The notes under the pieces: model-generated | The model's input: only the letters and a program-made list of their open reading frames with translations | Databases searched by the model: none | What the model was told of the DNA's origin: nothing | Position numbers and translations under genes: made by a program | Origin: Candidatus Magasanikiibacteriota bacterium | Lineage (GTDB): Bacteria; Patescibacteriota; Patescibacteriia; Magasanikbacterales; UBA922 | Length of the DNA stretch: 64,000 nt | Assembly: GCA_041665025.1 (NCBI GenBank) | Contig: JBAYJP010000001.1 | Span: forward strand, 211,996-275,995 | Reading direction: 5' to 3' | In this document: positions 3,687 through 40,881 of the stretch, in pieces | Layout: every line of letters begins with the position of its first letter | How positions within the stretch are numbered: position 1 is the stretch's first letter

Positions 3687-4499
3687 TTATAAAAATAATA
3701 AAATCAAAACTCCAATAATCACTCTATACACCACAAATGGCAAAAAACTCCACTTCTGTATTATTTTCATCAACCCCCAAATCGCAAGCAAACCACTTAT
3801 TGCCGACGCCACAAATCCTGCAATGAGCATCTCGACACCGACCGCTTCAAAACCGTTTTTTATCATATCAATTAATTGCATACCACCGGCAAGTGTAATA
3901 ATCGGAACACTCATGAGAAATGAAAATTCTGCTGCGCTTTTTTTATCCAATTTTGAAAACAATCCCGCTGTCATAGTAATACCTGACCGACTGGTTCCGG
4001 GAACAAGTGCGACAGCTTGTGCACAACCAATAAACAATGCGGTACGCCAATTTACCTTCTCTAATGATTGTTGATTGTTGATTGTTGTTCGTTGAACACG
4101 ATCTGCAATAAACAAAACAACTCCCCATACAATAAAATTCACTCCAATAATCCACGTCGCACGCAAGTTCTCTTCTATCCAACTGTCAAATAGGATTCCA
4201 ACAATTCCGGCTGGGATTATACTCAAAATAATTAACCAGGCTAATTTTCTATTACTGCTCCCTGTTCCTTGGTCGCTGTTCACCAGTAACACGCTCTTCA
4301 ACATCCCCAACAACTTCTTTCTAAAATACACAACCACTGCAACGAGTGTGCCAAGATGTATAAACGTATCGAACGCAAGTCCCTGATCTGCCCAACCAAA
4401 TAATTTTGGTAAAAAAATAAGATGGCCAGATGATGAGACGGGCAGGAATTCAGTAAGACCTTGAATTATTCCTAAAACAATTGCTTGAAGTATAGACAT
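3687..4499 (-). CDS. uppP: undecaprenyl-diphosphate phosphatase
   Basis: N-terminal MSILQAIVLGIIQGLTEFLPVSSSGHLI is the UppP/BacA signature; multi-TM protein. Confidence 0.9.
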   Translation of the reverse strand: MSILQAIVLGIIQGLTEFLPVSSSGHLIFLPKLFGWADQGLAFDTFIHLGTLVAVVVYFRKKLLGMLKSVLLVNSDQGTGSSNRKLAWLIILSIIPAGIVGILFDSWIEENLRATWIIGVNFIVWGVVLFIADRVQRTTINNQQSLEKVNWRTALFIGCAQAVALVPGTSRSGITMTAGLFSKLDKKSAAEFSFLMSVPIITLAGGMQLIDMIKNGFEAVGVEMLIAGFVASAISGLLAIWGLMKIIQKWSFLPFVVYRVIIGVLILLFL

Positions 4500-4581
4500 G
4501 CAATAAGTATAGCAGAAATATTGACAAAATTCTATAAATATGATATTATTTTGCGAAACTTACGCGCGGAAAGGGGTTGAC

Positions 4582-4812
4582 ATGGAAAAGACCCGCGCCG
4601 AGTTGGAGAGCCTTCTGCCGGAAGATCCGGCAATGGCTCTGCTGGTGCTGGCCGGCCTGATCTTCGCGTTCATGGTCGGCTGGTTGGTATTTCGGCTTCG
4701 CGCTGCGAAGCGTGTGGCCGAGACACTCAACTTCGAGACCGAGCGCCCCGCTCGCATCGCCGCCTTCGAAGAGAAGTCGGCTGAGCAGGATGGGACGCTC
4801 GTCGTCCGCTGA
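4582..4812 (+). CDS. small single-TM hypothetical protein encoded in a high-GC island (about 60% GC, GC3-rich codons)
   Basis: SD GGAAAGGGG followed by ATG. Protein MEKTRAELESLLPEDPAMALLVLAGLIFAFMVGWLVF... Codons are GCC/CTG/GGC/CGC-rich, unlike the host. An antisense ORF (4546..4842, TTG start) is also open, so the coding strand is not certain. Confidence 0.35.
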   Translation: MEKTRAELESLLPEDPAMALLVLAGLIFAFMVGWLVFRLRAAKRVAETLNFETERPARIAAFEEKSAEQDGTLVVR

Positions 4813-4923
4813 GAAAAAGGAGAAGGAAGATGAAACTTCCAAACAGCGGCGGGGTGCGAGTCTACATGCGCCCTAGCCGCTCCCTGCCATGAGATATTGA
4901 AATATCAATGCATCATGATACTA

Positions 4924-4960
4924 AAAAACCGATTCTTTATATAAGATCGGTTTTTTATTT
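4924..4960 (+). terminator. intrinsic terminator (hairpin accgat...atcggt plus T-run), bidirectional
   Basis: aaaaaccgattctttatataagatcggttttttatttt. Confidence 0.4.
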
Positions 4961-5036
4961 TACTCACCGCTTGAGAATTAATAATACTGTGATATATTCC
5001 TATAGCTCGGGCATACACATTGCGAAAGGAGGAATC

Positions 5037-5384
5037 ATGGCCAAAATCCTCGTGATAGATGACTACCCAACCATACGACGAATAATTACCTGTTTTCTCG
5101 ACAGGGAGCATGAGGTCATTGCTGTCTCAAACGGCGATGAGGCTGTCCGGATGTTTCAGACAAAGTGCTTTGACCTACTAATCGCTGATGTTGAAATTCC
5201 AGATGCGATGAGCGGCGTCATGGCAGGCAGAATTTTGAAAGATCAATTTCCTTCTTTGAAAGTAATCATGATGAGTGGGTATCCCCTCTCTCTCGAAGAA
5301 TATCCTTTTGCGGACAATGTAATCACAAAGCCTTTTCGCCAGACAGAACTGGCTCTTCTGGTTCGCACCACATTAGGAGGGTGA
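5037..5384 (+). CDS. stand-alone response-regulator receiver (CheY-like) domain protein
   Basis: Strong SD aaaggagg 6 nt upstream of the ATG. Motifs MAKILVIDD and LLIADVEIPD (phospho-acceptor Asp). No output domain. The ORF-track N-terminal extension is rejected. Confidence 0.75.
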   Translation: MAKILVIDDYPTIRRIITCFLDREHEVIAVSNGDEAVRMFQTKCFDLLIADVEIPDAMSGVMAGRILKDQFPSLKVIMMSGYPLSLEEYPFADNVITKPFRQTELALLVRTTLGG

Positions 5385-5416
5385 TCGTGTGTGCCCGGGC
5401 AGCCCTCCTTAATAAT

Positions 5417-5453
5417 AAAACCATCCTGCTTATCAACAGGACGGTTTTTTATT
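5417..5453 (+). terminator. intrinsic terminator
   Basis: aaaaccatcctg-cttatcaa-caggacggttttttatttt; the stem has one mismatch and is followed by a T-run. Confidence 0.4.
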
Positions 5454-5521
5454 TTATCTCTGCAGTATCTCAATATATCTCCATTTATATTGTTATCTAC
5501 TAACACAAATTGATTCTCAAA

Positions 5522-6673
5522 CTATACCAGGGCTCTCTTTAGTTCTTCAACTTTGTCCAATTTTTCCCACGGAAATTCATCTCTTCCAAAATGTCCATAT
5601 GCCGCAGTAGCCTGATAAATCGGACGAAGTAAATCAAGTTGTTCAATAATTGCTTTTGGTTTGAAGCTAAATACGTGTCGTACTGCTTGTTCTATTTTTT
5701 CATTTTCCACTTTGCCACTTCCATTAGTATTGACTAGAATACTTACTGGTTCTGCTACACCAATCGCATAAGCAACTTGGATCTCGCATCTATCTGCAAG
5801 ACCAGCAGCAACAATATTTTTTGCAACATAACGCGCATAGTATGACGCGCTTCGATCAACTTTGCTTGGATCTTTTCCTGAAAAACATCCGCCACCATGA
5901 CTGCCGTGTCCGCCGTACGTATCAACAATAATTTTGCGTCCCGTTAGACCCGCGTCTCCTACCGGTCCGCCAATAACAAACCGCCCAGTTGGATTTACAA
6001 AATATTTTGTATTCTCATCAACCAAATTTCCGCACACTGGTTTGATCACGTGTTCGATAATATCTTTGCGAATAGTTTCCAAATCAACATCGTCTGCATG
6101 TTGTGTTGAAATAACAACCGTATCTATACGTTTTGGCTTGCCATCTTCGTATTCTACGGTTACTTGAGATTTACCATCTGGACGAACATATTTCAAAGTT
6201 CCATTTTTACGCACTTCTGCCAACTTACGTGTTAATTTATGCGCATAAATAATGGGCATAGGCATGTACTCTGGTGTCTCATTGGTGGCATACCCAAACA
6301 TAAGACCTTGGTCTCCCGCGCCTTGTTCCTTGAATAAGCCTTCGCCTTCATTGACTCCTTGCGCGATATCTGGTGATTGTCCGGAAATGGCAACAAGAAC
6401 TCCGCACGTACTACCTTCAAAACCATATTCTGGTTTATCATAGCCAATATCCAAAATTGTTTTGCGCACAATATTTTGCACATCGACATACGTAGACGTA
6501 GTAACTTCTCCTGCTACTACCACAAATCCAGTTTTTGCAAGACACTCAATACCTGTATGTGCGTCTGGATCATCTTTGATAATCGCATCCACAATAGCAT
6601 CCGAAATTTGATCACACATTTTGTCTGGGTGACCCTCGGTCACTGATTCTGATGTAAAATAATATTTTGACAT
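5522..6673 (-). CDS. metK: S-adenosylmethionine synthetase
   Basis: [30 protein letters not shown] and a GGGAFSGKD-like motif; full length 383 aa. Confidence 0.95.
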
Positions 6674-6890
6674 ACTTTTTAGTAAATAAAAAACAACTAA
6701 TTAAAGTCGTTCAAGAAGATAGACGCCCCCAATCTGGGAAACGAACATTGTTGAGCAGTAATCTCGCCTATCGACCAAAGCAAGATACAGACCGGCCAAC
6801 AACGAACACCATGTTCTTGGACGATTAGGACGTAACACGAAGCGCGTATCACGTAACAAAATAATATTACAATATCTGTCCTTCGCTGTC
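6674..6890 (-). promoter_or_regulatory. GC-rich structured 5' leader of metK with terminator-like hairpin plus U-run; candidate SAM-responsive riboswitch of undetermined class
   Basis: A 217-nt leader, much more GC-rich than the surroundings. Near the start there is CAACAAUGUUCG...GAACGACUUUAAUUAGUUG followed by UUUUUUAUUU. The SAM-I consensus (GAGGGA..GGCCC..GCAACC) is not present. Confidence 0.3.
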
Positions 6891-6892
6891 AA

Positions 6893-7204
6893 TCACTTCT
6901 CTAATGGATACTTTTTTCTGTACTGTTCCTCGTTATAATATATAAGATAAAAATCCTTGTACGTCAAACCTTGTACTACAACGCCTGCTAAAAATCCGTA
7001 CACAATATTGTTGTAAAAACCAATAAACCACAGCAATAAAAGAAGTAAACCCCCATATAACCAGTGGTGAATGTGCAATATGTGAGGACCAATTCTAATT
7101 CTCACAGATTTGATACGCCCCGGCTGGCCTTCTTTTTTAGCAGATAACAATTTTGTAATCAGAAACCCTAGACCTGTGGAAATAACAAAAATAATCACAT
7201 TCAT
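6893..7204 (-). CDS. hypothetical small membrane protein
   Basis: Two or three predicted TM helices; no recognisable motif. Confidence 0.4.
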   Translation of the reverse strand: MNVIIFVISTGLGFLITKLLSAKKEGQPGRIKSVRIRIGPHILHIHHWLYGGLLLLLLWFIGFYNNIVYGFLAGVVVQGLTYKDFYLIYYNEEQYRKKYPLEK

Positions 7205-7262
7205 AATATAGAAACCGTAAACTAATAAAACTAGATCACAAATTTGGTGCTAAGCTTTATAA

Positions 7263-8465
7263 TTAAAATAGCTTAAAAACACTATACACCGCTCCGACTG
7301 CAAGTGCAAGCAGTAGTACAGGGACCAGAAGCAATGCATGATGTATGTGATATTTCTTATTATTCAACACTCCTTTTTGTCGAGCGCGCCAATATATAAA
7401 TACCACAAATATCAAATCAATACTTACCAATACTCCCCCAATGACATCAATAAGCCCAATAAAGCTTCTCAGTCCTGCCACAAAAATCAAAAACGGAATA
7501 ATACAGACAAGAAGCGACGAAATAATTGGACGTATGCGATAATCCCATGTCAAAGAATCACGAAGCGCCATACCACCCATGAGAAAACCAGTTCCCATGG
7601 CAAGCACTGCAAAAATGTTACCAAATACAAATACCGAATTACCAATAACATTACCCAGGCCTACTGTAGCAATTTCTGTCGTATGTGAACCAGTTACTCC
7701 CACCACCACAAAAGCAAACAAACTGTAAATACCTATGCAAATGAACGAAGCAATAATAATGGTTTTTTTAAATAATCCGTCTTTGTGTTTGAGTAGTGTA
7801 TGCGCTTCGGGTATAACGCCTGTACTGCTCAAAGAAAACAGGATTACACCATAAGGAAGTAATAAATATGCAAAATTGTTAAACTCAACATGGGTACTTG
7901 ATATGTAAGGAGCTCCCAGAATAGAAATAATGATAATAACGAGTAACAGGCCAATACTCAAAAACAGATCAGCAACTTTTATCATGCGCAAACCTACAAA
8001 AACACACACAGAGGCAACTGCAAAAAATACTATACTCCATATAAATGGATCTCCACCAAATAATGCTGAAAGAGATGTTCCCTCGCCAATAATATATACT
8101 GTCATGACTCCGGCTCCCATGAGATAAATAAAGCCCGTCATAACCCAGGCACCCCATGCACCCAAATATTCACGTGCGAGTCCTATAACTTGTAATTCCC
8201 GTCTCGTACATGTCGCCACCTCTCCAATAAGCAGATTAAGACCCATCATGAGTAGCCCGAGCGTGACTATATATATACATCCAACTAGTATTCCTACCTT
8301 TGCAACTACAAAAGGGACACCGAGTACACCAGCACCGATTGTTCCGCTTACGACAAGCGCTACGCCCTGCAATAATGATAATCTGCGTTTAAAAATACCT
8401 CTATGCTGGATAAGAGGATGATCTTCCACAACATGTTCGCTTTTTTTAAATCTATTGAAAAACAT
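7263..8465 (-). CDS. amino-acid permease (APC/HAAAP-like, roughly 11 TM)
   Basis: VALVVSGTIGAGVLGVP motif typical of amino-acid transporter families; polytopic. Confidence 0.55.
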   Translation of the reverse strand: MFFNRFKKSEHVVEDHPLIQHRGIFKRRLSLLQGVALVVSGTIGAGVLGVPFVVAKVGILVGCIYIVTLGLLMMGLNLLIGEVATCTRRELQVIGLAREYLGAWGAWVMTGFIYLMGAGVMTVYIIGEGTSLSALFGGDPFIWSIVFFAVASVCVFVGLRMIKVADLFLSIGLLLVIIIISILGAPYISSTHVEFNNFAYLLLPYGVILFSLSSTGVIPEAHTLLKHKDGLFKKTIIIASFICIGIYSLFAFVVVGVTGSHTTEIATVGLGNVIGNSVFVFGNIFAVLAMGTGFLMGGMALRDSLTWDYRIRPIISSLLVCIIPFLIFVAGLRSFIGLIDVIGGVLVSIDLIFVVFIYWRARQKGVLNNKKYHIHHALLLVPVLLLALAVGAVYSVFKLF

Positions 8466-8504
8466 ACCGCCTTTGAAAAATTTTAATATTTTTTCAGTAT
8501 TTTT

Positions 8505-9506
8505 TTAATATTCTTTCAATATCTCTTCTTTTACTATATCCCAATATTCTGGTTTATTTTGCTTTTCTTTCATCCAATACCACCATTCCACTCCCCATAA
8601 ATACGCACGGTTTGTACCAATATGTTTTACATAATCGATATGTTTTTTGAGGCGTGCGATATTCATAGTTTCTTCCTGCTCTGCAATAGGAGTGTCTGTT
8701 GGTGATGTGTCGGTAAACCATGGCTCTGCTTGAAGTTCAGCAACATACAGACGTTCAGTTCTAATACCCAATATCTTTGCTTTGTATTGATAAAACGCCG
8801 CAGGAAGCCAATCGTACGTCCAAATACGTCCGCCAGGAGTCCGTACAATGCGGTATAATGTCGTTCCAAACAAATCACCTGCTTTACTAGCTCTACGCCA
8901 AGTGCTCAGCTCTCCGCTGTCGGTGATCATGACCCAATGTACTTCATCCATTCTTTTTACCAAATTGACCTCTTCATGGGTAAAATCATTGCGAAATCTT
9001 TTGCAGTCTCCAAAACGAAAACGAATAAACGGCTCATTTTCTACCTGCCATAACTCAAGCGCCGTATTATTTTTGTATCGGTCTACGACAGCTGAAATAT
9101 ATGCGAATAGTTTTGTCTTGTATTCGTCTTCGGACAATGCATTGACCCATGATGGGACATGGCATTCAGGCCAGCGAGGAGCTTTTTGCCCCACAACTAA
9201 TGTCACTTTCGTGCCGGATTCCTTTGCCTTGTTCATCATGTAATCAACATCTTTGAAATCATAGGTGCCTTCTGCTTTTTCTACTTCACTCCACATAGCG
9301 GCAATGCGTATGTATGGCGGTTCTAGATCAGTAAGCATGTCTTCATACACCTGTTTCCAATCCAGACCAAGATATGAGGCATGACCCTGGTTAAAACTTA
9401 TGCCAAAGCGAACGGGATAGGTGCGCAAACTTGAAAACCACAAAAATCCATAACAAAGTGCTATGAGTATAATGATACTAACTAATATAAACAAAATGCG
9501 CTTCAT
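8505..9506 (-). CDS. membrane-anchored glycoside hydrolase, clan GH-A TIM barrel
   Basis: N-terminal TM anchor. LELWQVENEPF (NEP acid/base motif) and a later conserved E in YVAELQAEPW. Confidence 0.5.
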   Translation of the reverse strand: MKRILFILVSIIILIALCYGFLWFSSLRTYPVRFGISFNQGHASYLGLDWKQVYEDMLTDLEPPYIRIAAMWSEVEKAEGTYDFKDVDYMMNKAKESGTKVTLVVGQKAPRWPECHVPSWVNALSEDEYKTKLFAYISAVVDRYKNNTALELWQVENEPFIRFRFGDCKRFRNDFTHEEVNLVKRMDEVHWVMITDSGELSTWRRASKAGDLFGTTLYRIVRTPGGRIWTYDWLPAAFYQYKAKILGIRTERLYVAELQAEPWFTDTSPTDTPIAEQEETMNIARLKKHIDYVKHIGTNRAYLWGVEWWYWMKEKQNKPEYWDIVKEEILKEY

Positions 9507-10498: not shown

Positions 10499-11931
10499 TA
10501 TAACAAATGAACATCTTCTATTTCGCTTCTCTTTCCTCTCAACACAACCTCTTCGATATGATAGGCGCCATTGCGCGGAGCATTCAGAAATCCATTCATA
10601 GCAGCCTGCGCCAACCAGCCTGACTCAAGCCAGTCAAACAGCCATTCAGACGTATATCGCGGGTCTTCTTGAGGGACGCCCGCACCAATAGACATGAGCC
10701 ACTGTTTATTGAAATCTTCTTGCGAGCCAACCGTAGGAGCAATAATAATAGGCAGGCCCAAACCAGCATAAAACGATAACTCACTTGGTTTGGTCCACAA
10801 AACGTCAGTCTCATTGAGCACAGCATTAAATTTTTTGAAATACTCCTCTTTTGATTCAGCGTATACAATGGAAATATGTTTGTGATCCTTTAGTGAAAAA
10901 TTATTTTTATGTAACTCGTCTTCATAAAAACGATACACATCGTTACGCGTCCCAGCAACTAGACATAATTTCACTCTTCCTTTTACAATATGTTCACGCA
11001 AACTCTGCGCAATAATAATACCAAGCTCGCGCTGTGCTCCAGCACCGCCGACTGCAAATGTGATGGTAATCGGATGACGCACTTTGCATCTTTTGGCACA
11101 AAATTCTGAACTCAAAAATTCCGAGATGGTATGCGCATATTTACGGCGGTAACGTCCGTCTGGATCGAGATGGGTTATGCGCTCACCCAAAGACTTTTTC
11201 AAAATTGAAAGTGAAGATCCACCAATATTTTCTTTTGGCAAAGGAAATCCCGTAACAAAAATATTTTCTTTCCTGACTCCATACAACTGCAGACGCTCTT
11301 TCACACGCCTATTGGGGACCAAATAATTGATTCTTGTTTTCTTGGGATCAAAGGGCGCCCATGCACGGCTGATGTCTGTATCTGTACAAATACAATAAAT
11401 AGGGCCTTTGTACCCATGTTCTTCTGCAAAAAAGGCAGGGGTAAAAAATGTACTGATGAAAGGCAACGGATTGTGATTCAAAAGTTGGATAAGATGTTTT
11501 CCCCATCCAGACCTAATCATCCGATATATTTGTTTTACTTGAATAGTAGGGCCAGATAAATCGCGTGCGGGATAAAAAGGTTCAATACGCTGGACATAGT
11601 CCATAATGCCAAACGCCGCAGTACCAATAAGCGGAATATGTTTCATCCGAGAAACTGTTTCATAGAGTTTGCGCCCCCCCTCCCACATTCGTTGATCTTT
11701 TGCAGGAATTCCGCCATATTTGTTTGCGTTAATCACTCCGCTTCCATTGGTAGAAACTCCTTCTATTGAAGCGGCAATATCATGCAAAGGGTATGCCGCG
11801 CGCTGATGGCCATAGCCCATATCAACCGTAACGACATATGCATTTTTAAATTTTTCTTGGAAAGCCATAGAAGAAACAAAATATCTCGAAAAAATAAAAT
11901 ATCTTAAATTCAATTGCCTACAGTATACCAC
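10498..11931 (-). CDS. GT-B glycosyltransferase, MGDG-synthase/UgtP/MurG-like (GT28-like)
   Basis: N-terminal VVTVDMGYGHQRAAYPL resembles the G-G-G-H-x-x-A-A loop of GT28/MGD synthases. C-terminal half shows the GT-B nucleotide-binding pattern. Confidence 0.4.
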   Translation of the reverse strand: MVYCRQLNLRYFIFSRYFVSSMAFQEKFKNAYVVTVDMGYGHQRAAYPLHDIAASIEGVSTNGSGVINANKYGGIPAKDQRMWEGGRKLYETVSRMKHIPLIGTAAFGIMDYVQRIEPFYPARDLSGPTIQVKQIYRMIRSGWGKHLIQLLNHNPLPFISTFFTPAFFAEEHGYKGPIYCICTDTDISRAWAPFDPKKTRINYLVPNRRVKERLQLYGVRKENIFVTGFPLPKENIGGSSLSILKKSLGERITHLDPDGRYRRKYAHTISEFLSSEFCAKRCKVRHPITITFAVGGAGAQRELGIIIAQSLREHIVKGRVKLCLVAGTRNDVYRFYEDELHKNNFSLKDHKHISIVYAESKEEYFKKFNAVLNETDVLWTKPSELSFYAGLGLPIIIAPTVGSQEDFNKQWLMSIGAGVPQEDPRYTSEWLFDWLESGWLAQAAMNGFLNAPRNGAYHIEEVVLRGKRSEIEDVHLL

Positions 11932-12055
11932 ATAGCAGCAAAAATTCTAAGCTCTAAACTCGAAACAAATTTAAATGTTTAAATTAAAAAAAATTGAAAA
12001 TTGAATTTTGTAGTTTGATATTATTTAGAATTTTGTACTTTAAGTTTAGTATTTA

Positions 12056-14422
12056 CTATATTTCAATATTGTCCGGCGGCATAAACTTCGCTGGCTGAGT
12101 ATTCATATGCGCCAGTAGTGGTATATCTTCAAGAGACAATTTTCCTGTGTATAAAATTTTCATGCCTTCCTGAAGACTTTCCGAAAGATATTCCCTCACT
12201 TTTGTATATCCGCGAAAATATATGAGATCGCGCGTAGACGCACCCGCCCTGCTCGTGTCAGATATACCACGTTTAGCACGCACACACGTAGTCCAGGCGC
12301 TCTCGTCATCAAGCACATATTCTTTTTTCATATAATTGAACAATTCCACAAACGACATAGTCTGTGCATGGTATGCGGCAATAATACGTATACCAACGCG
12401 CTGCTCTTTTTCGCCCAATGGCAAACCGAGATGGCGCTGGTTATACACTGCCAACCCTTCTTCTGTCTCGAGATAGTGCGCCGTACCCTGTTCAAAAATT
12501 TGAAATGACTGTAATTTACCATTTTCAAGGCGATAAATATGTGTGCATATCTCATGCATAATTGCCGCAGACAAACGATTTTCAGACATTTTTACTTGCG
12601 AACGGACAAAAATAGTTCCATATTTATTCACTGCTATGTCAGCCGCCTGCGTTGAAGAAGTGACGACGCGCCATGAATTCAAATTATGCGTATCCAAAAA
12701 TGTACGCAAACGTTTTAAAATAGCGCGCGTCCCAAGCACTTTACTGGTATCCTCCGTAAGAGGATGTTCATCAATAAATGCTTTGGCTTGATTATACAAG
12801 TCTTCCGAAACATTACCATACAATTTTTCTGACGCATGAGGAAAATCCTCAGTCCCCACTTCGTCGATAAACTCAAGTTTAGTAATCATTTCTTCAATCT
12901 TTCTTACAAACAAGGGCATAAGTGCGTGATCAATGTCACGAGGCAAGGCGTCTATTTCACGCAGCATTTTTTCTAAATCAAATGATGGCCTACGATACAC
13001 AAACTTAGGAGACGCAATGGGACGCTGCAAAAATTGTTCTTTTGCTTCTACAAAATTAAGAGGTTTTATATACGCGAGCACATTAAGTTCCTTATCGATT
13101 TCGCACAATTTCTTGTCAATATTTTTCACAATCTTCTCATTCACCTCTCTGCGTTTAGCCTGCGTAGCAATGTGACTTTCCTCACTCGACTTGCTTTGTG
13201 CTGACTGAGGGTCAATAAGAAACCCATACAAAGCCTTCCCACCAATAATTGCCTGATATGTACCCTCGATATCTTGCATTTTAAAAGGAAACCTCACACG
13301 TTCTCCGCGAATAAGTACGTCGGCAAATCGCTCGGAGGGATCGAGATAGGTAAGGGATGAATCAAATACAACCTTCTCTCCATGTGGATCAATCTTTGCG
13401 CGTATGTGAGTATACGGCGTATTTAATATTTCAATATCTTCATACAAACCAACCACTTTTCGCGCAGTATCGTCTTTTTCTGTTTTTTCTTTCTCTGATA
13501 TGCTACTAAACAAGGCTTTGCTCACCTCAACGCCTTTTTCAGGATTCGGAATTTTTAAATCTTCAATTTTTTTGAGGCGATGCTTCAGTGGAATCTGATT
13601 TGCAATTTGGATGCCAAGCCCCGCGCGCGCATTTAATTCCAAAACTTTAATTCCATTGGTGGTAAGTGAAAGATCAACAGCTAAAAATTTTATTTGGCTT
13701 GCCTGCTGAGCGCGGGCAGCTGCGAGCAAAATAGTGTCCCATTCTGGCATTTCGATTTCTCTCACTTTTTTTCCATTGGGTAATTTTTGTATAAATCTAT
13801 TATGATAAACCGCGTACGTTGCTTTTCCCGTGACAATATCAATACCCGCACCGATAGCTCCCAAATGCAGATTGGCTTTCCCATGCGATTCAATCGTGGG
13901 TAACCGTAACATGGCGATAATCGGAACAAAATTAAAAACAATAATACGGATATCAGGAAGTCCACTTTCAATAAATGATTTGAAATATTCATGTGGCACA
14001 AGCAATTCCTCTATAATAACCTGGTCAAACAAACCAGAAATTGCATATTTACCATCGATAATAGATACCATATGATGATACAGCTCTGTCCATGTATACT
14101 GAGCTCCATCGACGCCAAAAAAATCATTGCCTTTATGCTGTGAAATAACAATAATCCCCTCTCCGCCATAACCGCGGTTTGGCTTAATAACAAATTTTTC
14201 TGGCAATGACTTCGGATTAAGGGTCTTCAAATCATTGTGACGTTTTAAGACTGCGTACACTTTTGCCACGCCAAAACCGCGTACCATGAGGTAATTTTTC
14301 GTAAACATTTTATCATCTGCAAAACGCTTGCTCTCATCTGTATTATAACGGCCGACATACTGCAGATTGCGCGCGTTCATGCCGAGTATGCCGTGGACTT
14401 TTTGAATCAGACCCATATACAA
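12056..14422 (-). CDS. fusion protein: N-terminal ATP-grasp amino-acid ligase (RimK / alpha-L-glutamate-ligase-related) plus C-terminal DUF1704 / QEGLA-motif (MATCAP-like) gluzincin domain
   Basis: ATP-grasp motifs GILGMNARNLQYVGRYN, KFVIKPNRGYGGEGIIVI and LELNARAGLG. C-terminal HExxH (AAIMHEICTHIY) followed by ETEEGLAVYNQ, the QEGLA motif. Confidence 0.6.
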   Translation of the reverse strand: MYMGLIQKVHGILGMNARNLQYVGRYNTDESKRFADDKMFTKNYLMVRGFGVAKVYAVLKRHNDLKTLNPKSLPEKFVIKPNRGYGGEGIIVISQHKGNDFFGVDGAQYTWTELYHHMVSIIDGKYAISGLFDQVIIEELLVPHEYFKSFIESGLPDIRIIVFNFVPIIAMLRLPTIESHGKANLHLGAIGAGIDIVTGKATYAVYHNRFIQKLPNGKKVREIEMPEWDTILLAAARAQQASQIKFLAVDLSLTTNGIKVLELNARAGLGIQIANQIPLKHRLKKIEDLKIPNPEKGVEVSKALFSSISEKEKTEKDDTARKVVGLYEDIEILNTPYTHIRAKIDPHGEKVVFDSSLTYLDPSERFADVLIRGERVRFPFKMQDIEGTYQAIIGGKALYGFLIDPQSAQSKSSEESHIATQAKRREVNEKIVKNIDKKLCEIDKELNVLAYIKPLNFVEAKEQFLQRPIASPKFVYRRPSFDLEKMLREIDALPRDIDHALMPLFVRKIEEMITKLEFIDEVGTEDFPHASEKLYGNVSEDLYNQAKAFIDEHPLTEDTSKVLGTRAILKRLRTFLDTHNLNSWRVVTSSTQAADIAVNKYGTIFVRSQVKMSENRLSAAIMHEICTHIYRLENGKLQSFQIFEQGTAHYLETEEGLAVYNQRHLGLPLGEKEQRVGIRIIAAYHAQTMSFVELFNYMKKEYVLDDESAWTTCVRAKRGISDTSRAGASTRDLIYFRGYTKVREYLSESLQEGMKILYTGKLSLEDIPLLAHMNTQPAKFMPPDNIEI

Positions 14423-14577
14423 TTGTCTACTTTATAACGCATTAAAACTCTAAATACGAAAAACTAAACTCGAAACAAATACAAAATTTAAATAACCAAA
14501 TTACAATTTTAAATTTTAAGAATTTAATATTTGAATTTATTTAGAATTTCGAGATTCGAGAATAGATTTTATATCAA

Positions 14578-16107
14578 CTACTCTTCTTTATGATCAGACA
14601 ATAAACTTCTAAATCGTATGTATTCACTGATGCGCAGGCCGCTAAATTTTCCAAGTAAAATAATAAGGACAAGCGGAACCAAAATAAATTCCGGCCAAGA
14701 AATGATCAAGCTATTGAACGAAGACCAATGAATCATATAATACGATACAATCACAACGCCCAATGTTTCAATAACGCCAAATATGGCCGCACGCAAACCC
14801 TCTTCGGACTTGGTTGCAGTAAATTTTTCAGACAATGTCGACATAACAAGCAAAGGAAATACCGCCACTGACAATGGAAGCGTTGTACCGATCCACATCA
14901 TAATCACCATGAGAATCAAAAAAGACAAACTAATAAATGACAAATTTAGGGCAACCTTGGTAAGATACAGAAGTTCAATTTTTCCAAATATAAATTTCAC
15001 AATATAACTTGTAACAACTGCAAAAATAAACGCGAGAATACCAAATTTGAGGCCCAAAATATAAAAAGTCAAACTAATGATGACCGGGGTGAAAACTCCA
15101 AATGTATTGACACCTACCACATGGCGCGCGAACACAACAACAAACGCGAGAAATGGAACAGTGAGAATTAAATAAATACTGTCTGCAGATATTCCGCGCT
15201 TGATAAACGAAGTAACCAATGTAGACAGTACATACCACTTCGGCTTTCCAGAATCACTATCAATGCGAAGAAATTCAATCCCCCGTTCCTGGAGCTGGGT
15301 TTCTACAGCAGAAATATCAATCGTACTTGCTAATACCCCCAATGCTTCTGGCCGTGTGAGCAATAGATGCCGGGGACGCACGATCTCAAACGTCTGATAC
15401 GCGCCTTGCTTGGCAACATACATATTATTCTCAGAAATAAACACAAATTGTTTATTCTTTAAAATAATTTTTTGCTCATCAGGAACTCCCTGCCAGTACC
15501 GTGTAAATGCCTGCAATCCGCGCAAGGAACTTGTGTAAAACACAAGCGTCTCTGCATCTTGAATTTTTTTTATCTCGGTATCAAACAACTTAAGAAATTC
15601 TTCTTCCGCCACATAGTCACCCTGGGTCTCTGCAGGAACTACGATATCAAATGCAATACCATATTCCTCAGCTTGGCTGTCTAATTCTTTGAGCCGCTGT
15701 GCCGTAGACGAATCTCCAATGAAAATCACGCGTCCATTATATACGAGCACGCTTTTACTGCTCATTCTAATTTCTCCCGTAGCACTATCTGTTGCAGTAA
15801 GTGTAACATCGTACACGTCTGCCTTTACATATTGATGCACTACTTCTGTCCCAACTTCAAAAAATCCGTCTCCGAAATCCCAACGAAACGTAACCGTAGA
15901 TGTGGGAGAAATAGTGGATTTAGAAGCATCAAATATAATCTTTTTATCAACACGGACTGAGTCGTCCGAGACAATAACCGGCGTGAGTGAAAATTCAGCT
16001 AAAACGGAATCTTCTGCTGTCTGGGCATGAGTTATATTTCCCAAACTAACGCCTATGGTTAATAAGAAAAAAAACAAAATATAACCAATATATCGAGATG
16101 TGTTCAT
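14578..16107 (-). CDS. 7TM membrane protein with signal peptide and extracellular PKD domain; 7TM partner of the ATP-grasp/zincin system
   Basis: Signal peptide, PKD motif VTFRWDFGDG, then 7 predicted TM helices in the C-terminal 200 aa. Lies immediately upstream of the ATP-grasp gene on the same strand. Confidence 0.5.
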   Translation of the reverse strand: MNTSRYIGYILFFFLLTIGVSLGNITHAQTAEDSVLAEFSLTPVIVSDDSVRVDKKIIFDASKSTISPTSTVTFRWDFGDGFFEVGTEVVHQYVKADVYDVTLTATDSATGEIRMSSKSVLVYNGRVIFIGDSSTAQRLKELDSQAEEYGIAFDIVVPAETQGDYVAEEEFLKLFDTEIKKIQDAETLVFYTSSLRGLQAFTRYWQGVPDEQKIILKNKQFVFISENNMYVAKQGAYQTFEIVRPRHLLLTRPEALGVLASTIDISAVETQLQERGIEFLRIDSDSGKPKWYVLSTLVTSFIKRGISADSIYLILTVPFLAFVVVFARHVVGVNTFGVFTPVIISLTFYILGLKFGILAFIFAVVTSYIVKFIFGKIELLYLTKVALNLSFISLSFLILMVIMMWIGTTLPLSVAVFPLLVMSTLSEKFTATKSEEGLRAAIFGVIETLGVVIVSYYMIHWSSFNSLIISWPEFILVPLVLIILLGKFSGLRISEYIRFRSLLSDHKEE

Positions 16108-16170
16108 ACGCTTAACAATGTTAAAATATAGTTGTGTATATAGTATAGCAGATTTGGCTCATATAAAAAA

Positions 16171-16196
16171 TCCAGCGTCGCTTTGCTATGCTGGAT
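16171..16196 (-). terminator. intrinsic terminator after tRNA-Trp
   Basis: On the minus strand: uccagcauagcaaagcgacgcugga hairpin followed by uuuuuu (plus-strand A-run at 16165-16170). Confidence 0.5.
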
Positions 16197-16256
16197 AAAC
16201 TACGAAACCCTATTTTGAATTTTACCGCTTGCCAGGCGTAACGAAGTGAGGACTAG

Positions 16257-16327
16257 CAGGCGCTGTAGGAATCGAACCTACACTAACGGTTTTGGAGACC
16301 GTAGTACTACCATTATACGAAGCGCCC
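16257..16327 (-). tRNA. tRNA-Trp (anticodon CCA), no encoded CCA tail
   Basis: Manual cloverleaf: acceptor GGGCGCU/AGCGCCU, D-arm GUAU/GUAC, anticodon stem ACGGU/ACCGU with loop CUCCAAA, T-arm GUAGG-UUCGAUU-CCUAC, discriminator G. Confidence 0.9.
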
Positions 16328-16425
16328 ATGCTTTGAAAGCCAAAAAAGTATACTAAATAATTAACTAAAAATCAAGTAATATATCTTACCTCATTTTTAT
16401 CAAAGATAATAGCGTAATAACGTAT

Positions 16426-17244
16426 TTACACTGATTTAGGCGGTACTTTTTGGATAACATCTGTATCCTTTTTCCAAAAAACTGCAGTAATCATTACCCC
16501 AAGAAGCAAAACAGTAAACAAATATCGAATTTGTACATCAAAAGCTGATAATACTGCCACAATAATACTTGGCCCTGTGAGTGCAAAAAGCCCTAAGGTA
16601 TATATACTCCCAAATTTCCATTCATCCCATTTCCCAAAATAAGCAACTAATAATACAATTACAGATACTACCAACAAATAAACTAATTTTCCAATACCAA
16701 GAATAAAGAACCACGCCACCAAAGCCAGAACAAAAATTCCAGTCTTGTTCATGAGTGTTCCATCTATCCAGGAAATGACACTCTGCTTACCTATTTCAAA
16801 ATTCGGCATTTCAGAAAAATACTGAACTTTTGTCTGATGTTGTTCTCTGTCATAAAACTCCAGCCTATTTGAAGCAAACAACACGCCATCTTGAGTAGAT
16901 GTATCAATGTATGCGTCAATCGGCTCAGTGGTGGATGAAACAGTATCTACGATTATTTTGACAGATTTTTCCTCGGACTCAAATATGTATGGCTGTTCTA
17001 GTTGTGTTACATTGGCTACTCCATCTTTTACTTGTACATGAAATGCGGGGATATTGTTTACAATTTCATTGCGTACGTCAGATACTCGACGTGGTATGAT
17101 TATGGCAGAATAAATCGCGTAGCCTACAGACAAAAGTAAAATAAACAAGATGACATAATTGGCAGCCTGGCGGCCGTTGTTGCGCTGTGCACGCAACCAT
17201 GAAAAGTCATAGAGACTTTTTAGAAACGCTTTGAGGTAAAACAT
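16426..17244 (-). CDS. hypothetical membrane protein (possibly DUF1189-like)
   Basis: N-terminal TM, a soluble middle region and C-terminal TM helices; no catalytic motif recognised. Confidence 0.35.
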   Translation of the reverse strand: MFYLKAFLKSLYDFSWLRAQRNNGRQAANYVILFILLLSVGYAIYSAIIIPRRVSDVRNEIVNNIPAFHVQVKDGVANVTQLEQPYIFESEEKSVKIIVDTVSSTTEPIDAYIDTSTQDGVLFASNRLEFYDREQHQTKVQYFSEMPNFEIGKQSVISWIDGTLMNKTGIFVLALVAWFFILGIGKLVYLLVVSVIVLLVAYFGKWDEWKFGSIYTLGLFALTGPSIIVAVLSAFDVQIRYLFTVLLLGVMITAVFWKKDTDVIQKVPPKSV

Positions 17245-17465: not shown

Positions 17466-17556
17466 ATCATTAAGTTAATATAGAAAGTTTACCCGTCTAT
17501 TTATAGAATAGGGTGACGTAATAATACACAAAAGACATCGAAATGTCAATACCCAG

Positions 17557-17629
17557 AGCCGTTGCGCGGAATTGAACCGCGGACCACCTCCTTACCATGG
17601 AGGTGCTCTACCAACTGAGCTACAACGGC
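17557..17629 (-). tRNA. tRNA-Thr (anticodon GGU)
   Basis: Cloverleaf GCCGUUG-UA-GCUC-AGUUGGUA-GAGC-A-CCUCC-AUGGUAA-GGAGG-UGGUC-CGCGG-UUCAAUU-CCGCG-CAACGGC-U. Confidence 0.9.
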
Positions 17630-17747
17630 CTAAATTCCTGTGCGTGCCAAGATGACGCGACCATTGCAGCAGATAATCAGCCGCGTAAAGTCGCTGACGA
17701 TCCTACGCGTCACTCAAAGACGCTTCGTGTAGTCGCGTCTTTTCGCG

Positions 17748-17821
17748 TGCACGCCAAGGGATTCGAACCCCTGACCCTCTCGGTGTAAACGAGATGCTCT
17801 AACCAACTGAGCTAGGCGTGC
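17748..17821 (-). tRNA. tRNA-Val (anticodon UAC)
   Basis: Cloverleaf GCACGCC-UA-GCUC-AGUUGGUUA-GAGC-A-UCUCG-UUUACAC-CGAGA-GGGUC-AGGGG-UUCGAAU-CCCUU-GGCGUGC-A. Confidence 0.9.
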
Positions 17822-17825
17822 GTAG

Positions 17826-17907
17826 TGGGCAGAGAAGGATTCGAACCTTCGAAGGCGGAGCCAACAGATTTACAGTCTGTCCCCTTTGACCGCTCGGGAA
17901 TCTGCCC
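17826..17907 (-). tRNA. tRNA-Tyr (anticodon GUA), long variable arm
   Basis: Acceptor GGGCAGA/UCUGCCC, anticodon stem ACAGA/UCUGU with loop CUGUAAA, 13-nt variable arm, T-arm GAAGG-UUCGAAU-CCUUC. Only 4 nt separate it from tRNA-Val. Confidence 0.9.
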
Positions 17908-18005
17908 GTGATAGTTTGTAAAGTTAAAAGTTATAAAGTAAAAAGTTACTAGAGTAAAAAACTAAAACTTTATAACTTGGAACTTTACAACTTTTAACTT
18001 TGGAG

Positions 18006-18078
18006 AGCCGAGAACAGGATTCGAACCCGCGACCCGCTGTTTACAAAACAGCTGCTCTACCAGCTGAGCTATCTCGGC
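18006..18078 (-). tRNA. tRNA-Thr (anticodon UGU)
   Basis: Cloverleaf GCCGAGA-UA-GCUC-AGCUGGUA-GAGC-A-GCUGU-UUUGUAA-ACAGC-GGGUC-GCGGG-UUCGAAU-CCUGU-UCUCGGC-U. The downstream bases are CUCCA, so CCA is not directly encoded. Confidence 0.9.
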
Positions 18079-19899: not shown

Positions 19900-21159
19900 T
19901 TAAAATTTAATCTTCCCTGCGTCAATATCCCCAATTACCGCCACTCTTATCTTATTAAAATCAAACACCTCACGCGCAACGCGTATGATATCATCATTAC
20001 TCACCATGTCAACTTTTTTGAGCCAGTCGTTAGGCGTTTCTATCGTATCAAAAAACATAGCTTCACGCGCATAATAACTTGCCTGAGCGCTTGAATCTTC
20101 CAAGGCCAACGTCAATGCTCCTCTTGTGTGGGTCTTTGCGTCTTGAAGTTCTTTGGACATAATACCTTTATTACATATTTTTTCAATCTCTACCTTCATG
20201 ACGTCTACGGCTTTGTTAATATTTTTTGCTTCAAGTCCTGCACGCACAAATACATATCCTGAATCGCGAAACGTTTCTGCTCCACTCCTAATAGTATATG
20301 CAAGGCCTCGGCGTTCACGGATTTGGATAAACAAACGCGAACTCATTGAGCCTCCAAGCACGGTATTCATAACTCCGAGCGCAGGTATGCGCGTGTCAGT
20401 ATGATTAAATCCAGGAAATCCGAGCATGAGCTGAGACTGGTCAGTCTTTTTCTGGTGCACTTCAATACGATCTTTTTTTACACTGCTTCCATATGAAGCC
20501 TTATCAAATAGTCTCGATGCTTTCTTTTGGTTTGATGCTCTGCCAAAATATTCTTCCACAATTTGCTTTGTCTTTTCATTCACATTGCCTGCCGCCACAA
20601 CGAGCATATTATGTGGCTGATAATACGTATCTCGGTAATGCAACACATCTTCACGCTTAAATCCCATAACGTGCTTTTCTGTACCTGCGATATCCCTACC
20701 TAAATGCGATCCACGATACATGAGTTCTTCAAATGCGTTGTCGATATACAACAGCGGATTATCTTTATACATGCGGATTTCTTCGACAATCACGGTTTTT
20801 TCTCTTTGTATCTCTTTCACATCGTACAGCGAATTAAATAGCATATCAGACAAAATATCGCACGATGTTTCTAAAAAATTCACGTCAGTCTTGATATAAT
20901 ACCCGGTATATTCTTTGCTCGTAAATGCATTATATTCCGCACCGAGTCTATCAATCTCGCGTGTCAACTTCAATGTCGAAGGACGTTTTGTTGTACCCTT
21001 AAACATGAGATGTTCGATATAATGAGAAACGCCATTCATCTTTTCTGTTTCATAGCGTGACCCTACTGGAAACATGACTAACAATGTCACTGATTGGGAG
21101 TCTTTGAGAGGGATAAGAATTACCTGGGCTTTATTGTGGAGAGTATAATTTTGAAACAT
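19900..21159 (-). CDS. M16-family zinc peptidase (insulinase/pitrilysin-like)
   Basis: Inverted zinc motif HYIEHLMFKGT (HxxEH). Start trimmed to MFQNYTL at 21159 so it does not overlap the upstream ORF. Confidence 0.75.
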   Translation of the reverse strand: MFQNYTLHNKAQVILIPLKDSQSVTLLVMFPVGSRYETEKMNGVSHYIEHLMFKGTTKRPSTLKLTREIDRLGAEYNAFTSKEYTGYYIKTDVNFLETSCDILSDMLFNSLYDVKEIQREKTVIVEEIRMYKDNPLLYIDNAFEELMYRGSHLGRDIAGTEKHVMGFKREDVLHYRDTYYQPHNMLVVAAGNVNEKTKQIVEEYFGRASNQKKASRLFDKASYGSSVKKDRIEVHQKKTDQSQLMLGFPGFNHTDTRIPALGVMNTVLGGSMSSRLFIQIRERRGLAYTIRSGAETFRDSGYVFVRAGLEAKNINKAVDVMKVEIEKICNKGIMSKELQDAKTHTRGALTLALEDSSAQASYYAREAMFFDTIETPNDWLKKVDMVSNDDIIRVAREVFDFNKIRVAVIGDIDAGKIKF

Positions 21160-21166
21160 AATGTTA

Positions 21167-21424
21167 TTATTTTCTTTTGTCAGGTGAATGATAATTTGCC
21201 TCTGGGTTTGGTTCAAAAGGGTCTCCATCTTTAAACCTAGCATGAAAACAATTACGACAATCTGGATTAGCTACTTTTCCACATTCAGGACACGCAAGCA
21301 CGCCATTCGCATCAGGCCTAGGAATAGCACCGCCTTCGCGAGGTCTTTCATCTTGAATTTGTCTGTCAAGACCAGCCTCCTCACGTCGGCTAGTTATTCT
21401 CTCGATGTCTTCCAGCCTAGTCAT
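21167..21424 (-). CDS. hypothetical small zinc-ribbon protein
   Basis: C-x2-C-x7-C-x2-C (CPECGKVANPDCRNC). Packed between glyQS and the M16 peptidase on the same strand. Confidence 0.3.
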   Translation of the reverse strand: MTRLEDIERITSRREEAGLDRQIQDERPREGGAIPRPDANGVLACPECGKVANPDCRNCFHARFKDGDPFEPNPEANYHSPDKRK

Positions 21425-21428
21425 AAAT

Positions 21429-22772
21429 TTAATTAAACTTCTCATTTAAATAATCTCTCAACTCGCTCATTTCAATTCTCTCCTGCACCATCGTATCTCT
21501 ATCCCTCACCGTAACTTTTTTATCTTCAAGAGAATCAAAATCAACCGTCACACAATATGGCGTACCGATCTCGTCTTGTCTACGATAACGTTTGCCAATA
21601 CTTTGTGTTTCATCATAATCAACCATAAAATCTTTTCTCAAATCATTTGCAATCTGGCGTGCAACTGATGAAAGTTCTTCTTTTTTGGATAATGGCAATA
21701 TGGCAACTTGAACAGGTGCCAAGTGCTTGGGGAATTTCATCACCACACGTGCTTCAGTTTCTCCTTCTTTTGCAGTTGGAGCTTCCTCTTCAGTATACGC
21801 TTCAAGCAATGAGACAAGTAACATACGATCAATACCAAAAGTTGGCTCGATCACATGAGGCAAAAACTTCTCATTTGTTTCAGGGTCTTGGTACGTCAAA
21901 TCTTGTCCGCTCACTTCCTGATGGCGCGTTAAATCAAAATCAGTACGATACGCGATACCATGCAATTCTTTCACGCCAAATGGATATTTGTATTCAATAT
22001 CAACGGTCCGCTTACTATAATGTGCGCGTTCACCATCGGGAATTTCATGCCAAACTAAATTATCCATGTTGATCTGCATAATATCTTTCCACCAGCGTTT
22101 GATTTCATCCAGCCACATCTCAAAAGTTTTTTCCCAATTTTCCGGTTTGATAAAATATTCAAACTCGCCTATTTCAAATTCACGCGTGCGAAAAATAAAA
22201 TTACCTGGCGTAATTTCATTGCGAAAACATTTGCCAATCTGGGCAATACCAAACGGCAATCTGCGTCTCGTAACATTTAAAATATTTTTAAAATTGACAA
22301 ACATACCACCCGCGGTTTCTGGACGCAAATATGCAGTCGTCGATGTATCTTCATTTGTTCCAATAAATGTCTTGAACATGAGGTTAAAATTTTTGGGTTC
22401 AGTAAATGTACCTCCGCAATCAGGACATGTTAATTTTGAAACATCTTGTCCTTCAGTATAGTCTGGAAGCTGGTCAAATCTAAATCGATGGTGACATTTC
22501 TTGCACTCAACCAACTGATCAGTAAAATTCTGCAAATGACCCGACGCTTCCCATGCCTTGGGATTCATAATAATAGCGCTGTCGAGTGGAACCATATCTT
22601 CACGTTCTTGTACAAAAAATTTCCACCACGCTTTTTTGATGTTTTGTTTTAGGGCATGACCAAGAGGACCATAGTCCCAGCTATTGGCTAATCCGCCATA
22701 GATTTCACTACCAGGGAATATAAAACCCCTGCGCTTTGCGAGTGAGGTTACTTTATCTAGTAAGTTTTCCAT
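21429..22772 (-). CDS. glyQS: glycine--tRNA ligase (alpha2 dimeric type)
   Basis: Full-length 447 aa class II aaRS with the GlyRS anticodon-binding domain; typical N-terminus MENLLDKVTSLAKRRGFIFPGSEIYGG. Confidence 0.9.
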   Translation of the reverse strand: MENLLDKVTSLAKRRGFIFPGSEIYGGLANSWDYGPLGHALKQNIKKAWWKFFVQEREDMVPLDSAIIMNPKAWEASGHLQNFTDQLVECKKCHHRFRFDQLPDYTEGQDVSKLTCPDCGGTFTEPKNFNLMFKTFIGTNEDTSTTAYLRPETAGGMFVNFKNILNVTRRRLPFGIAQIGKCFRNEITPGNFIFRTREFEIGEFEYFIKPENWEKTFEMWLDEIKRWWKDIMQINMDNLVWHEIPDGERAHYSKRTVDIEYKYPFGVKELHGIAYRTDFDLTRHQEVSGQDLTYQDPETNEKFLPHVIEPTFGIDRMLLVSLLEAYTEEEAPTAKEGETEARVVMKFPKHLAPVQVAILPLSKKEELSSVARQIANDLRKDFMVDYDETQSIGKRYRRQDEIGTPYCVTVDFDSLEDKKVTVRDRDTMVQERIEMSELRDYLNEKFN

Positions 22773-40830: not shown

Positions 40831-40881
40831 TAATAAACACAGATTACACTATGGCAAAAATTTTGTCAAGTGTAATCGAGC

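Follow-up and report, generated by a model that had tools for sequence, protein, structure and literature searches.

Systems that pair an ATP-grasp ligase with a seven-transmembrane (7TM) protein were reportedly first predicted by Iyer et al. in 2009. Two ATP-grasp enzymes, LysX and ArgX, attach an amino acid to the C-terminal glutamate of a dedicated partner, using gamma-carboxyl chemistry and serving biosynthesis, and ribosomal protein S6, the substrate of RimK, ends in a short encoded run of glutamates. The glutamates that RimK adds to the C-terminus of S6 are taken off again by RimB; RimBK hybrid proteins exist as well (PMC11957791). Both RimB and RloA cleave poly-glutamate tails (PMC11957791, PMC12239564), RloA cutting stretches of eight or more glutamates. 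Mutants without the rloA proteases have defects that are suppressed when rloB or rloC is lost (PMC12239564), which fits a ligase product that needs trimming. The MATCAP/TMCP enzymes are HExxxH/EEG carboxypeptidases that are sensitive to mutation of the penultimate glutamate, and the title of the same paper also reports deglutamylation (PMC10499314). Here we describe a gene pair from a Candidatus Magasanikiibacteriota bacterium, located on a 64,000-nucleotide (nt) stretch of contig JBAYJP010000001.1 (hereafter the window), in which a PKD-domain 7TM membrane protein (the partner) is encoded next to a single enzyme that carries both an ATP-grasp ligase domain and a MATCAP (DUF1704) metallocarboxypeptidase domain, and in which the C-terminal Glu-Glu (-EE) of the partner is a candidate substrate of that enzyme.

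The pair had been noticed earlier in a reading of the DNA letters by themselves (the original prediction), which viewed it as a self-contained module for ligating and removing a C-terminal amino acid or peptide tail and regarded systems of this type as known from comparative genomics only. The first view is consistent with all of our findings, and the partner's own -EE tail now provides a candidate substrate. The second has been overtaken, since a genetic study of the related rloABC operon appeared in 2025 (PMC12239564). Our literature search found no paper that describes the Patescibacteria architecture or that mentions ATP-grasp alongside DUF1704 or bacterial ATP-grasp alongside MATCAP, and public databases annotate the fusion only at the domain level.

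Partner tails and enzyme types

Tails were linked to neighbouring enzymes in 80 species-level loci by custom hidden Markov models (HMMs), plus four look-ups. All 63 partners of MATCAP-type fusions ended in glutamate, 56 of them in EE, EEE or EEEE and the other 7 in QE or VE. Conversely, 3 of the 17 partners of retropepsin-type fusions, a sister enzyme architecture without MATCAP, ended in glutamate (a single E) and none ended in EE, while neither of two proteobacterial RloB-like proteins (from Legionella and Aeromonas) had a terminal glutamate or EE. A search of protein representatives with the full partner alignment gave 131,026 matches, mostly giant multi-PKD proteins, and contributed 22 extra partners. 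Among 103 partner-family proteins, 17 had Lys/Arg-rich tails, whereas the others ended in encoded glutamates that numbered from 1 to 4 (one in 7 proteins, two to four in 79). Tail positions -1 and -2 were nearly fixed and positions -3 to -7 freely variable, and the enzyme type was predicted correctly from the tail alone in all four look-ups, which were prospective.

One of these four, the protein P0360, is particularly telling. Its tail reads ..FHEE and its gene is followed by that of a 795-amino-acid (aa) MATCAP fusion, but its 7TM region without the tail groups with retropepsin-type partners (96/100 bootstrap), and its locus also has the YebC-RuvC upstream synteny of those partners. The association of tail with enzyme gave a Fisher p of 7.5e-11 with kinship ignored; the real weight of the co-variation lies not in this value but in the retention of the terminal glutamate over very deep divergence and in the contrast that P0360 offers between close relatives.

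We propose, with a probability of about 0.5, that the ATP-grasp domain extends the -EE tail of the partner, probably with glutamate, and that the MATCAP domain trims it back. In this scheme, the ATP-grasp domain would drive the addition of amino acids, most likely glutamate, to the alpha-carboxylate of the partner's terminal glutamate at the expense of ATP, and the MATCAP domain would remove residues one by one from the C-terminus, halting at the encoded -EE stub. How long or how charged the tail is, and presumably how active the 7TM protein is, would depend on the balance of both activities; by analogy with rloABC, the physiological output may lie in envelope or osmotic homeostasis. The middle domain of the enzyme would be a relic of a trimming retropepsin, probably kept as a tail-binding or ligase-stimulating scaffold; MATCAP would have taken over from this retropepsin, an endo-acting enzyme, and the catalytic motif of the latter would have decayed afterwards. 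Support comes from the characterised relatives of either half, which have C-terminal glutamate tails as their substrates. The analyses themselves show the domain identities, the conserved catalytic residues, the membrane topology, the pairing of the genes and the co-variation of tail with enzyme; the tail as substrate, the amino acid added and the physiological output are the parts of the proposal that we infer. A broader version, in which the pair represents a reversible bacterial tail code, with glutamate or another residue written and erased on the -EE of a 7TM sensor or transporter, and the evolutionary source of the ligase/MATCAP logic of eukaryotic tubulin, is offered tentatively. For RloC/7TM_transglut systems, this Patescibacteria variant puts forward a concrete and testable candidate substrate in the partner's own C-terminal -EE. 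With a short peptide as the tail and one soluble protein as the enzyme, simple in vitro tests are possible.

Within the window, the partner was the only open reading frame (ORF) of 100 aa or more that ended in EE. This counts against a model in which the -EE tail mimics the MATCAP product and thereby brings the enzyme to the membrane or keeps it auto-inhibited, while other proteins with acidic C-termini are the true substrates. Such mimicry would account for the co-variation of the tail with the MATCAP domain and not with the ATP-grasp domain common to all types, and the product of tubulin detyrosination by MATCAP does end in -EE (PMC10499314). Nevertheless, no other candidate substrate was linked to the pair, no third gene recurred beside it, and a ligase–trimmer fusion next to one membrane protein most simply has that protein as its target; we consider the mimicry model quite unlikely.

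Several observations weigh against tail extension and trimming. One or two evolutionary events, with retention thereafter, may be enough to account for the co-variation. Two MATCAP-type loci (L027 and L059) have no partner gene within ~4.5 kb on either side; their partner may lie elsewhere in the genome or be missing. The same ATP-grasp subfamily also serves the retropepsin-type and proteobacterial systems, whose partners lack EE tails, so that either the tail is not a universal acceptor or acceptor specificity differs by type. Finally, the RloA proteases of Pseudomonas are secreted (PMC12239564); their substrate must therefore lie beyond the cytoplasm, which speaks for a product that is exported.

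The last two observations agree better with a model in which the product of the ATP-grasp domain is a free peptide or polymer such as poly-alpha-glutamate, which the 7TM protein exports or anchors and which MATCAP trims or degrades before export, with the -EE tail of the partner serving only as a primer or docking handle. RimK also makes free poly-alpha-glutamate and is stimulated in this by RimB (PMC11957791), the authors of the rlo-operon study allow for free polyE peptides (PMC12239564), and partners without EE tails still keep the ATP-grasp/7TM pairing. However, the ligase is cytoplasmic and shares one chain with both peptidase domains, so that trimming must take place in the cytoplasm, and the 7TM family has no demonstrated transport activity. 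The model by itself also leaves the terminal glutamate in 63 of 63 MATCAP-type partners unexplained, and we regard it as doubtful.

A three-domain fusion enzyme

The 788-aa ORF of the original prediction is present at 12056..14422 (-) and opens with TTG; an ATG two codons in, at 14416, gives 786 aa, the TTG at 14422 being the alternative start. The product from this ATG showed 100% identity and coverage to the public protein P0001, which bears the name 'tyrosine/phenylalanine carboxypeptidase domain-containing protein' (Candidatus Magasanikbacteria), and the motifs quoted earlier were found at residues 9-17 (GILGMNARN), 259-266 (LELNARAG), 621-626 (HEICTH) and 652-656 (EEGLA). Assignment of the N-terminal half to ATP-grasp and of the C-terminal half to MATCAP/DUF1704 was confirmed by HMM searches, in which both greatly exceeded the Pfam gathering scores: residues 16-285 matched ATPgrasp_ST PF14397 (E 1.4e-56; 192.2 bits versus a cut-off of 31.4) and residues 468-773 matched MATCAP/DUF1704 PF08014 (E 2.6e-45; 155.4 bits versus a cut-off of 27).

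More specific families were matched below their thresholds. The NCBIfam model TIGR02291 (alpha-L-glutamate ligase-like, RloC type) gave 1.9e-75 and 253.8 bits, under its equivalog cut-off of 314.2; the fusion enzyme represents a subfamily related to TIGR02291 and is no equivalog. TIGR02421 (QEGLA-motif) gave 2.2e-51 and 175.2 bits, under its cut-off of 338.65, and the motif here reads EEGLA, not QEGLA. The Pfam RimK model PF08443 scored 17.3 bits on the fusion enzyme, under its cut-off of 21, and the TTL family PF03133 showed no match to it at E up to 0.1. By the thresholds of the families themselves, the fusion pair falls outside RimK, TTL, TIGR02291, TIGR02421 and RloB.

The AlphaFold2 (AF2) model of the enzyme had a predicted local distance difference test score (pLDDT) of 90.9 and a predicted template-modelling score (pTM) of 0.70. 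In Foldseek searches, the C-terminal half matched human MATCAP (7z5g; E 1.4e-13, target-normalised TM-score up to 0.69), and the N-terminal half matched RimK (5zct/5zk6; E 2.7e-9) as well as LysX/ArgX (3vpb and 5k2m). Of these structures, 5zk6 is RimK solved with RpsF, and 3vpb and 5k2m are LysX/ArgX solved with the carrier protein LysW. A phmmer comparison with 7z5g gave 4.1e-10, with HEICTH aligned to HEIGTH and with TEEGLA and RAKRG also aligned. In MATCAP/TMCP enzymes, the HExxxH metal site includes the catalytic glutamate, and the third ligand lies in the EEG motif (PMC10499314). Across 120 homologues of the window enzyme, K78, G82/G85/G87, E136, E137, D248, E260, N262 and R264 of the ATP-grasp half and H621, E622, H626, E652, E653, K715 and R716 of the MATCAP half were invariant. 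By the general features of the two folds, we take the invariant residues to be catalytic or metal-binding; for ATP and Mg in the ATP-grasp half, these are a lysine ahead of a Gly-rich loop, an acidic hinge and Asp/Glu/Asn metal ligands. Their invariance suggests that both halves are under selection as enzymes, and both look catalytically competent. We know of no tubulin in these bacteria, so the target of the MATCAP domain must differ.

Whereas the original prediction recognised two catalytic halves only, we found three domains, residues ~318-405 forming a degenerate RimB/RloA-like retropepsin domain. This domain was recognised through the sister architecture, in which proteins of 430-492 aa combine ATPgrasp_ST with a RimB-like retropepsin that has an intact AKIDTGA motif, lack MATCAP and are encoded downstream of some PKD-7TM relatives. 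The window protein aligned with one such sister fusion through residue 356 (35% identity, 2e-69), and hhalign comparison of its middle-domain profile with the intact sister-fusion domains gave a probability of 98.0% (E 1.7e-13). The intact domains match PF05618, and their profile matched 9g59 and 9g58 at 4e-11; both entries are crystal structures of RloA (PMC12239564). A Pfam scan of the middle region alone yielded no retropepsin match, and a PDB profile search with this region returned chance-level matches only. AF2 predicted the middle domain to be all-beta with one short helix.

The AKIDTGA motif of the intact domains is replaced by AKIDPHG in the window protein. A D[TS]G[AST] motif was present in 14 of 14 short fusions, in none of the 120 homologues of the window protein and in 1 of 66 MATCAP-type loci, where it stands out of context. 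The motif decays along a gradient from KIDTGA through RIDTSL, KIDSTS and KIDPH (the window) to 'KIDL.' and then to none. Taken in order, the window enzyme consists of an ATP-grasp domain, a dead retropepsin, a long helix and a MATCAP domain.

In two retropepsin-type loci, the ATP-grasp gene is followed directly by another one. In L093, this second gene (6455-7933) carries its own AKIDTGA retropepsin-like domain, and in L094 it encodes a 320-aa ATP-grasp protein of the YheCD/GshB type (6512-7474). No extra ligase was found in the MATCAP-type loci whose called genes were inspected.

Partner, distribution and gene neighbourhood

An adjacent, co-directional gene for a signal-peptide, PKD and 7TM protein had been predicted, and its product indeed matched Pfam PKD_4 (2.2e-13, residues 43-109) and 7TM_transglut (7.7e-30, residues 300-502). 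It differs, however, from RloB. The NCBIfam RloB model NF052267 matched the 7TM part only (positions 315-508; 61.8 bits versus a cut-off of 900), so that the inactive transglutaminase ectodomain of RloB is absent from the partner, and a PKD domain and an alpha/beta domain stand in its place. The AF2 model of the partner (pLDDT 88.7, pTM 0.79) contained a PKD sandwich with a target-normalised TM-score of 0.90 to the ColG PKD domain 2y72; the alpha/beta domain had no clear solved relative in the structure search.

In the AF2 model, an amphipathic helix (residues 493-504) is followed by a five-residue coil, DHKEE, and the tail ends in ...RFRSLLSDHKEE. The cytoplasmic loops (tail included) contain 9 lysines and arginines, and the outside loops between transmembrane (TM) helices contain 0. 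Because an external N-terminus is followed by seven TM helices, the partner tail is cytoplasmic, and the PKD and alpha/beta domains lie on the outer side; signal peptide, TM helices and the positive-inside rule agree on this. Features of both genes are listed in Table 1.

Table 1. Positions of the gene pair and its parts in the window
Feature	Coordinates	Strand	Basis and remarks
Fusion enzyme gene	12056..14416	(-)	ORF list and translation; 786 aa; three-domain cytoplasmic enzyme (ATP-grasp/degenerate retropepsin-like/MATCAP)
ATP-grasp ligase domain, ATPgrasp_ST/RloC-like, residues 9-300	13517..14392	(-)	PF14397, TIGR02291, Foldseek; LELNARAG at 13619-13642
Degenerate RimB/RloA-like retropepsin domain, residues 318-405	13202..13465	(-)	hhalign; KIDPH at 13382-13396
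Long connecting helix, middle domain to MATCAP, residues 411-444	13085..13186	(-)	AF2 secondary structure
MATCAP/DUF1704 metallocarboxypeptidase domain, residues 430-786	12059..13129	(-)	PF08014, phmmer, Foldseek; HEICTH at 12539-12556, EEGLA at 12449-12463
AT-rich spacer, partner gene to enzyme gene, 161 nt	14417..14577	(-)	
Membrane partner gene, 509 aa	14578..16107	(-)	Pfam PKD_4 and 7TM_transglut
Partner signal peptide	16024-16107	(-)	
Partner PKD domain	15739-15981	(-)	ColG 2y72 match
Partner alpha/beta ectodomain	15265-15735	(-)	AF2
Partner seven TM helices	14647-15195	(-)	AF2, 7TM_transglut
Juxtamembrane helix and C-terminal tail FSGLRISEYIRFRSLLSDHKEE	14581..14646	(-)	Terminal Glu-Glu at 14581-14586, proposed acceptor/trimming site

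Irrespective of their tails, the MATCAP-type, retropepsin-type and proteobacterial RloB-like proteins share a conserved juxtamembrane motif just after TM7, G-[LY]-[RK]-x-x-E-x-x-[RK]-F-[RK], which could be a common docking site for the ATP-grasp enzyme. One member of the partner family (P0336, 540 aa) has a long Ser/Asp/Glu-rich tail (..RRQSSGSDSEEESSSQDSEAS) that is neither short -EE nor basic.

The fusion architecture was matched in at least 376 protein clusters. Among the 120 matches listed, all were 761-811 aa long and carried both domains, with identity down to 42%, and those with an informative source name came from Patescibacteria (Magasanik-, Kerfeld-, Buchanan-, Peregrini- and Gracilibacteria). 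A scan of species-representative genomes with an ATP-grasp alignment as the query found at least 566 related loci, both enzyme types counted. Since the architecture recurs in so many clusters, and the catalytic residues of both halves are invariant in the 120 aligned homologues, an assembly-induced fusion was rejected. The module is thus widespread in the small-genome Patescibacteria. In a set of nine loci (L013, L014, L018, L057, L061, L064, L067, L077 and L082), several contigs are titled 'uncultured Gammaproteobacteria' or 'Bdellovibrionales'; their ATP-grasp domains are 42-68% identical to those of metagenome-assembled genomes labelled Patescibacteria, and the titles may therefore be binning or naming errors.

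The conserved unit is the gene pair: between loci of Magasanik-, Kerfeld- and Gracilibacteria, nothing is shared beyond a PKD-7TM gene with the fusion gene after it. A conserved third gene was rejected, as no flanking family occurred in more than 19 of the 66 MATCAP-type loci, and the most frequent one, at 19/66, belonged to one lineage. The block of envelope genes seen in the original prediction holds up in part: the genes downstream in the window are DUF6938/MGDG_synth-like, EamA, GH-like and permease genes. This synteny is lineage-local, recurring only in another Magasanikbacteria locus, and we rejected the block as part of the module because it is not found in the Kerfeld- or Gracilibacteria loci.

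The neighbourhood also bears on a model in which a cell-surface glycopolymer or lipid-linked precursor receives the amino acids that the ATP-grasp domain ligates, in concert with the neighbouring glycosyltransferase-like, drug/metabolite transporter (DMT) and glycoside hydrolase (GH)-like genes. The Pfam family of the ligase is named 'sugar-transfer associated', mutants of the rlo operon have envelope phenotypes (PMC12239564), and DUF6938/MGDG_synth-like, EamA and GH-like genes do lie downstream here and in the other Magasanikbacteria locus. Yet the downstream block is missing from the Kerfeld- and Gracilibacteria loci, no flanking family is general, a carboxypeptidase that needs a free peptide C-terminus is ill-suited to sugar chemistry, and the nearest structural relatives of the ligase are protein-tail and peptide ligases. 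We consider this model very improbable.

In most related loci, the two genes overlap slightly or stand no more than about 20 nt apart, with 81 nt in L006 and 217 nt in L012. A promoter and terminator scan of 11800-16600 found nothing above shuffled controls. In a Gracilibacteria locus (L072), the enzyme (4219-6804) and partner (7683-9452) genes read through only with genetic code 25 (UGA sense), and the partner gene is downstream of the enzyme gene, not upstream; its product still ends in ..KREE. Upstream of the window pair, a tRNA-Trp gene (16256-16327) lies on the same strand, 149 nt from the partner gene, and an ORF-free stretch further upstream is taken up by four clustered tRNA genes (Thr, Val, Tyr and Thr; 17556-18078). 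Two tandem 447-aa ORFs follow at 19900-21243 and 21429-22772 (-), the first of which is an M16 (insulinase-type) peptidase by Pfam. Rfam RF00557 matched at 40676-40848 (-) with 62.6 bits, marking a leader of the ribosomal protein L10 type that lies beside a tRNA-Glu gene at 41050-41122.

Comparison with known systems

According to the original prediction, the two halves of the enzyme usually sit in separate neighbouring genes. This claim mixed two contexts. MATCAP-family (QEGLA, TIGR02421) genes of proteobacteria do adjoin ATP-grasp genes, as in Photobacterium (L086) and Aminobacter (L088), but the ATP-grasp enzyme there belongs to the glutathione-synthetase (GshB) type, with GSH-S_N and GSH-S_ATP domains. 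An N-formylglutamate amidohydrolase is fused to the MATCAP domain or encoded beside it, and no 7TM partner was found in these two scanned loci. For ATPgrasp_ST, the normal companions are a 7TM protein and a retropepsin, the rlo operon being an example. As MATCAP-family proteins stand beside two ATP-grasp families, their pairing may have arisen more than once. The Photobacterium locus (L086 4104-7098, on a plasmid/chromid) has a LysR regulator and a 2-oxoglutarate (2OG)-Fe(II) oxygenase nearby, and the Aminobacter locus (L088 4451-8195) is on a plasmid. In P. damselae at low salinity, a QEGLA-motif gene was 27-fold up and a gene annotated as glutathione synthase GshB, four locus tags away, 38-fold up; the latter is taken to be the GshB-like ATP-grasp partner of the QEGLA gene.

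The LysX/ArgX–LysW system resembles the window pair in its ATP-grasp enzyme, which was among the best structural matches (3vpb and 5k2m), and differs in that it has no peptidase partner and its carrier protein is soluble.

In the tubulin cycle, as in the scheme proposed here, an ATP-grasp ligase (TTL/TTLL) is opposed by an HExxxH/EEG carboxypeptidase (MATCAP, TMCP1/2), and the acidic tail ends in -EE after trimming. The homology to MATCAP is direct (PF08014; 7z5g at E 1.4e-13). Unlike in the tubulin cycle, the window ligase is non-TTL, both activities would reside in one polypeptide, and the target would be a bacterial membrane protein; moreover, the partner gene encodes the trimmed (-EE) state, so that ligation would come first. 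A bacterial MATCAP-family carboxypeptidase that is physically coupled to an amino-acid ligase bears on the origin of the machinery for tubulin tyrosination and glutamylation.

RloABC of Pseudomonas aeruginosa (PMC12239564) shares with the window pair an ATP-grasp enzyme of the same family (RloC), a 7TM_transglut protein and a poly-Glu-directed peptidase, and the juxtamembrane motif G-L/Y-R/K..E..RF is common to both. RloA, however, is separate, secreted and active, whereas the retropepsin domain of the window enzyme is fused, cytoplasmic and degenerate, with MATCAP added; the ORF list and family scan revealed no gene for a separate secreted RloA protease in the window locus. In addition, RloB has an inactive transglutaminase ectodomain where the window partner has PKD and alpha/beta domains, and the two RloB-like tails examined lack a terminal glutamate.

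In the RimK/RimB/S6 system, and as proposed here, an ATP-grasp alpha-L-glutamate ligase and a dedicated peptidase act on the C-terminal glutamate of a specific protein. Ligase–peptidase fusions occur in both, the window ATP-grasp domain is structurally closest to RimK, and its relic middle domain is homologous to RimB-like retropepsins. The window enzyme differs from RimK and RimB in its ATPgrasp_ST subfamily, in a domain order that is the reverse of that in RimBK, in the loss of the retropepsin motif and the addition of an exo-acting MATCAP metallocarboxypeptidase, and in its proposed target, which would be a 7TM protein and not S6.

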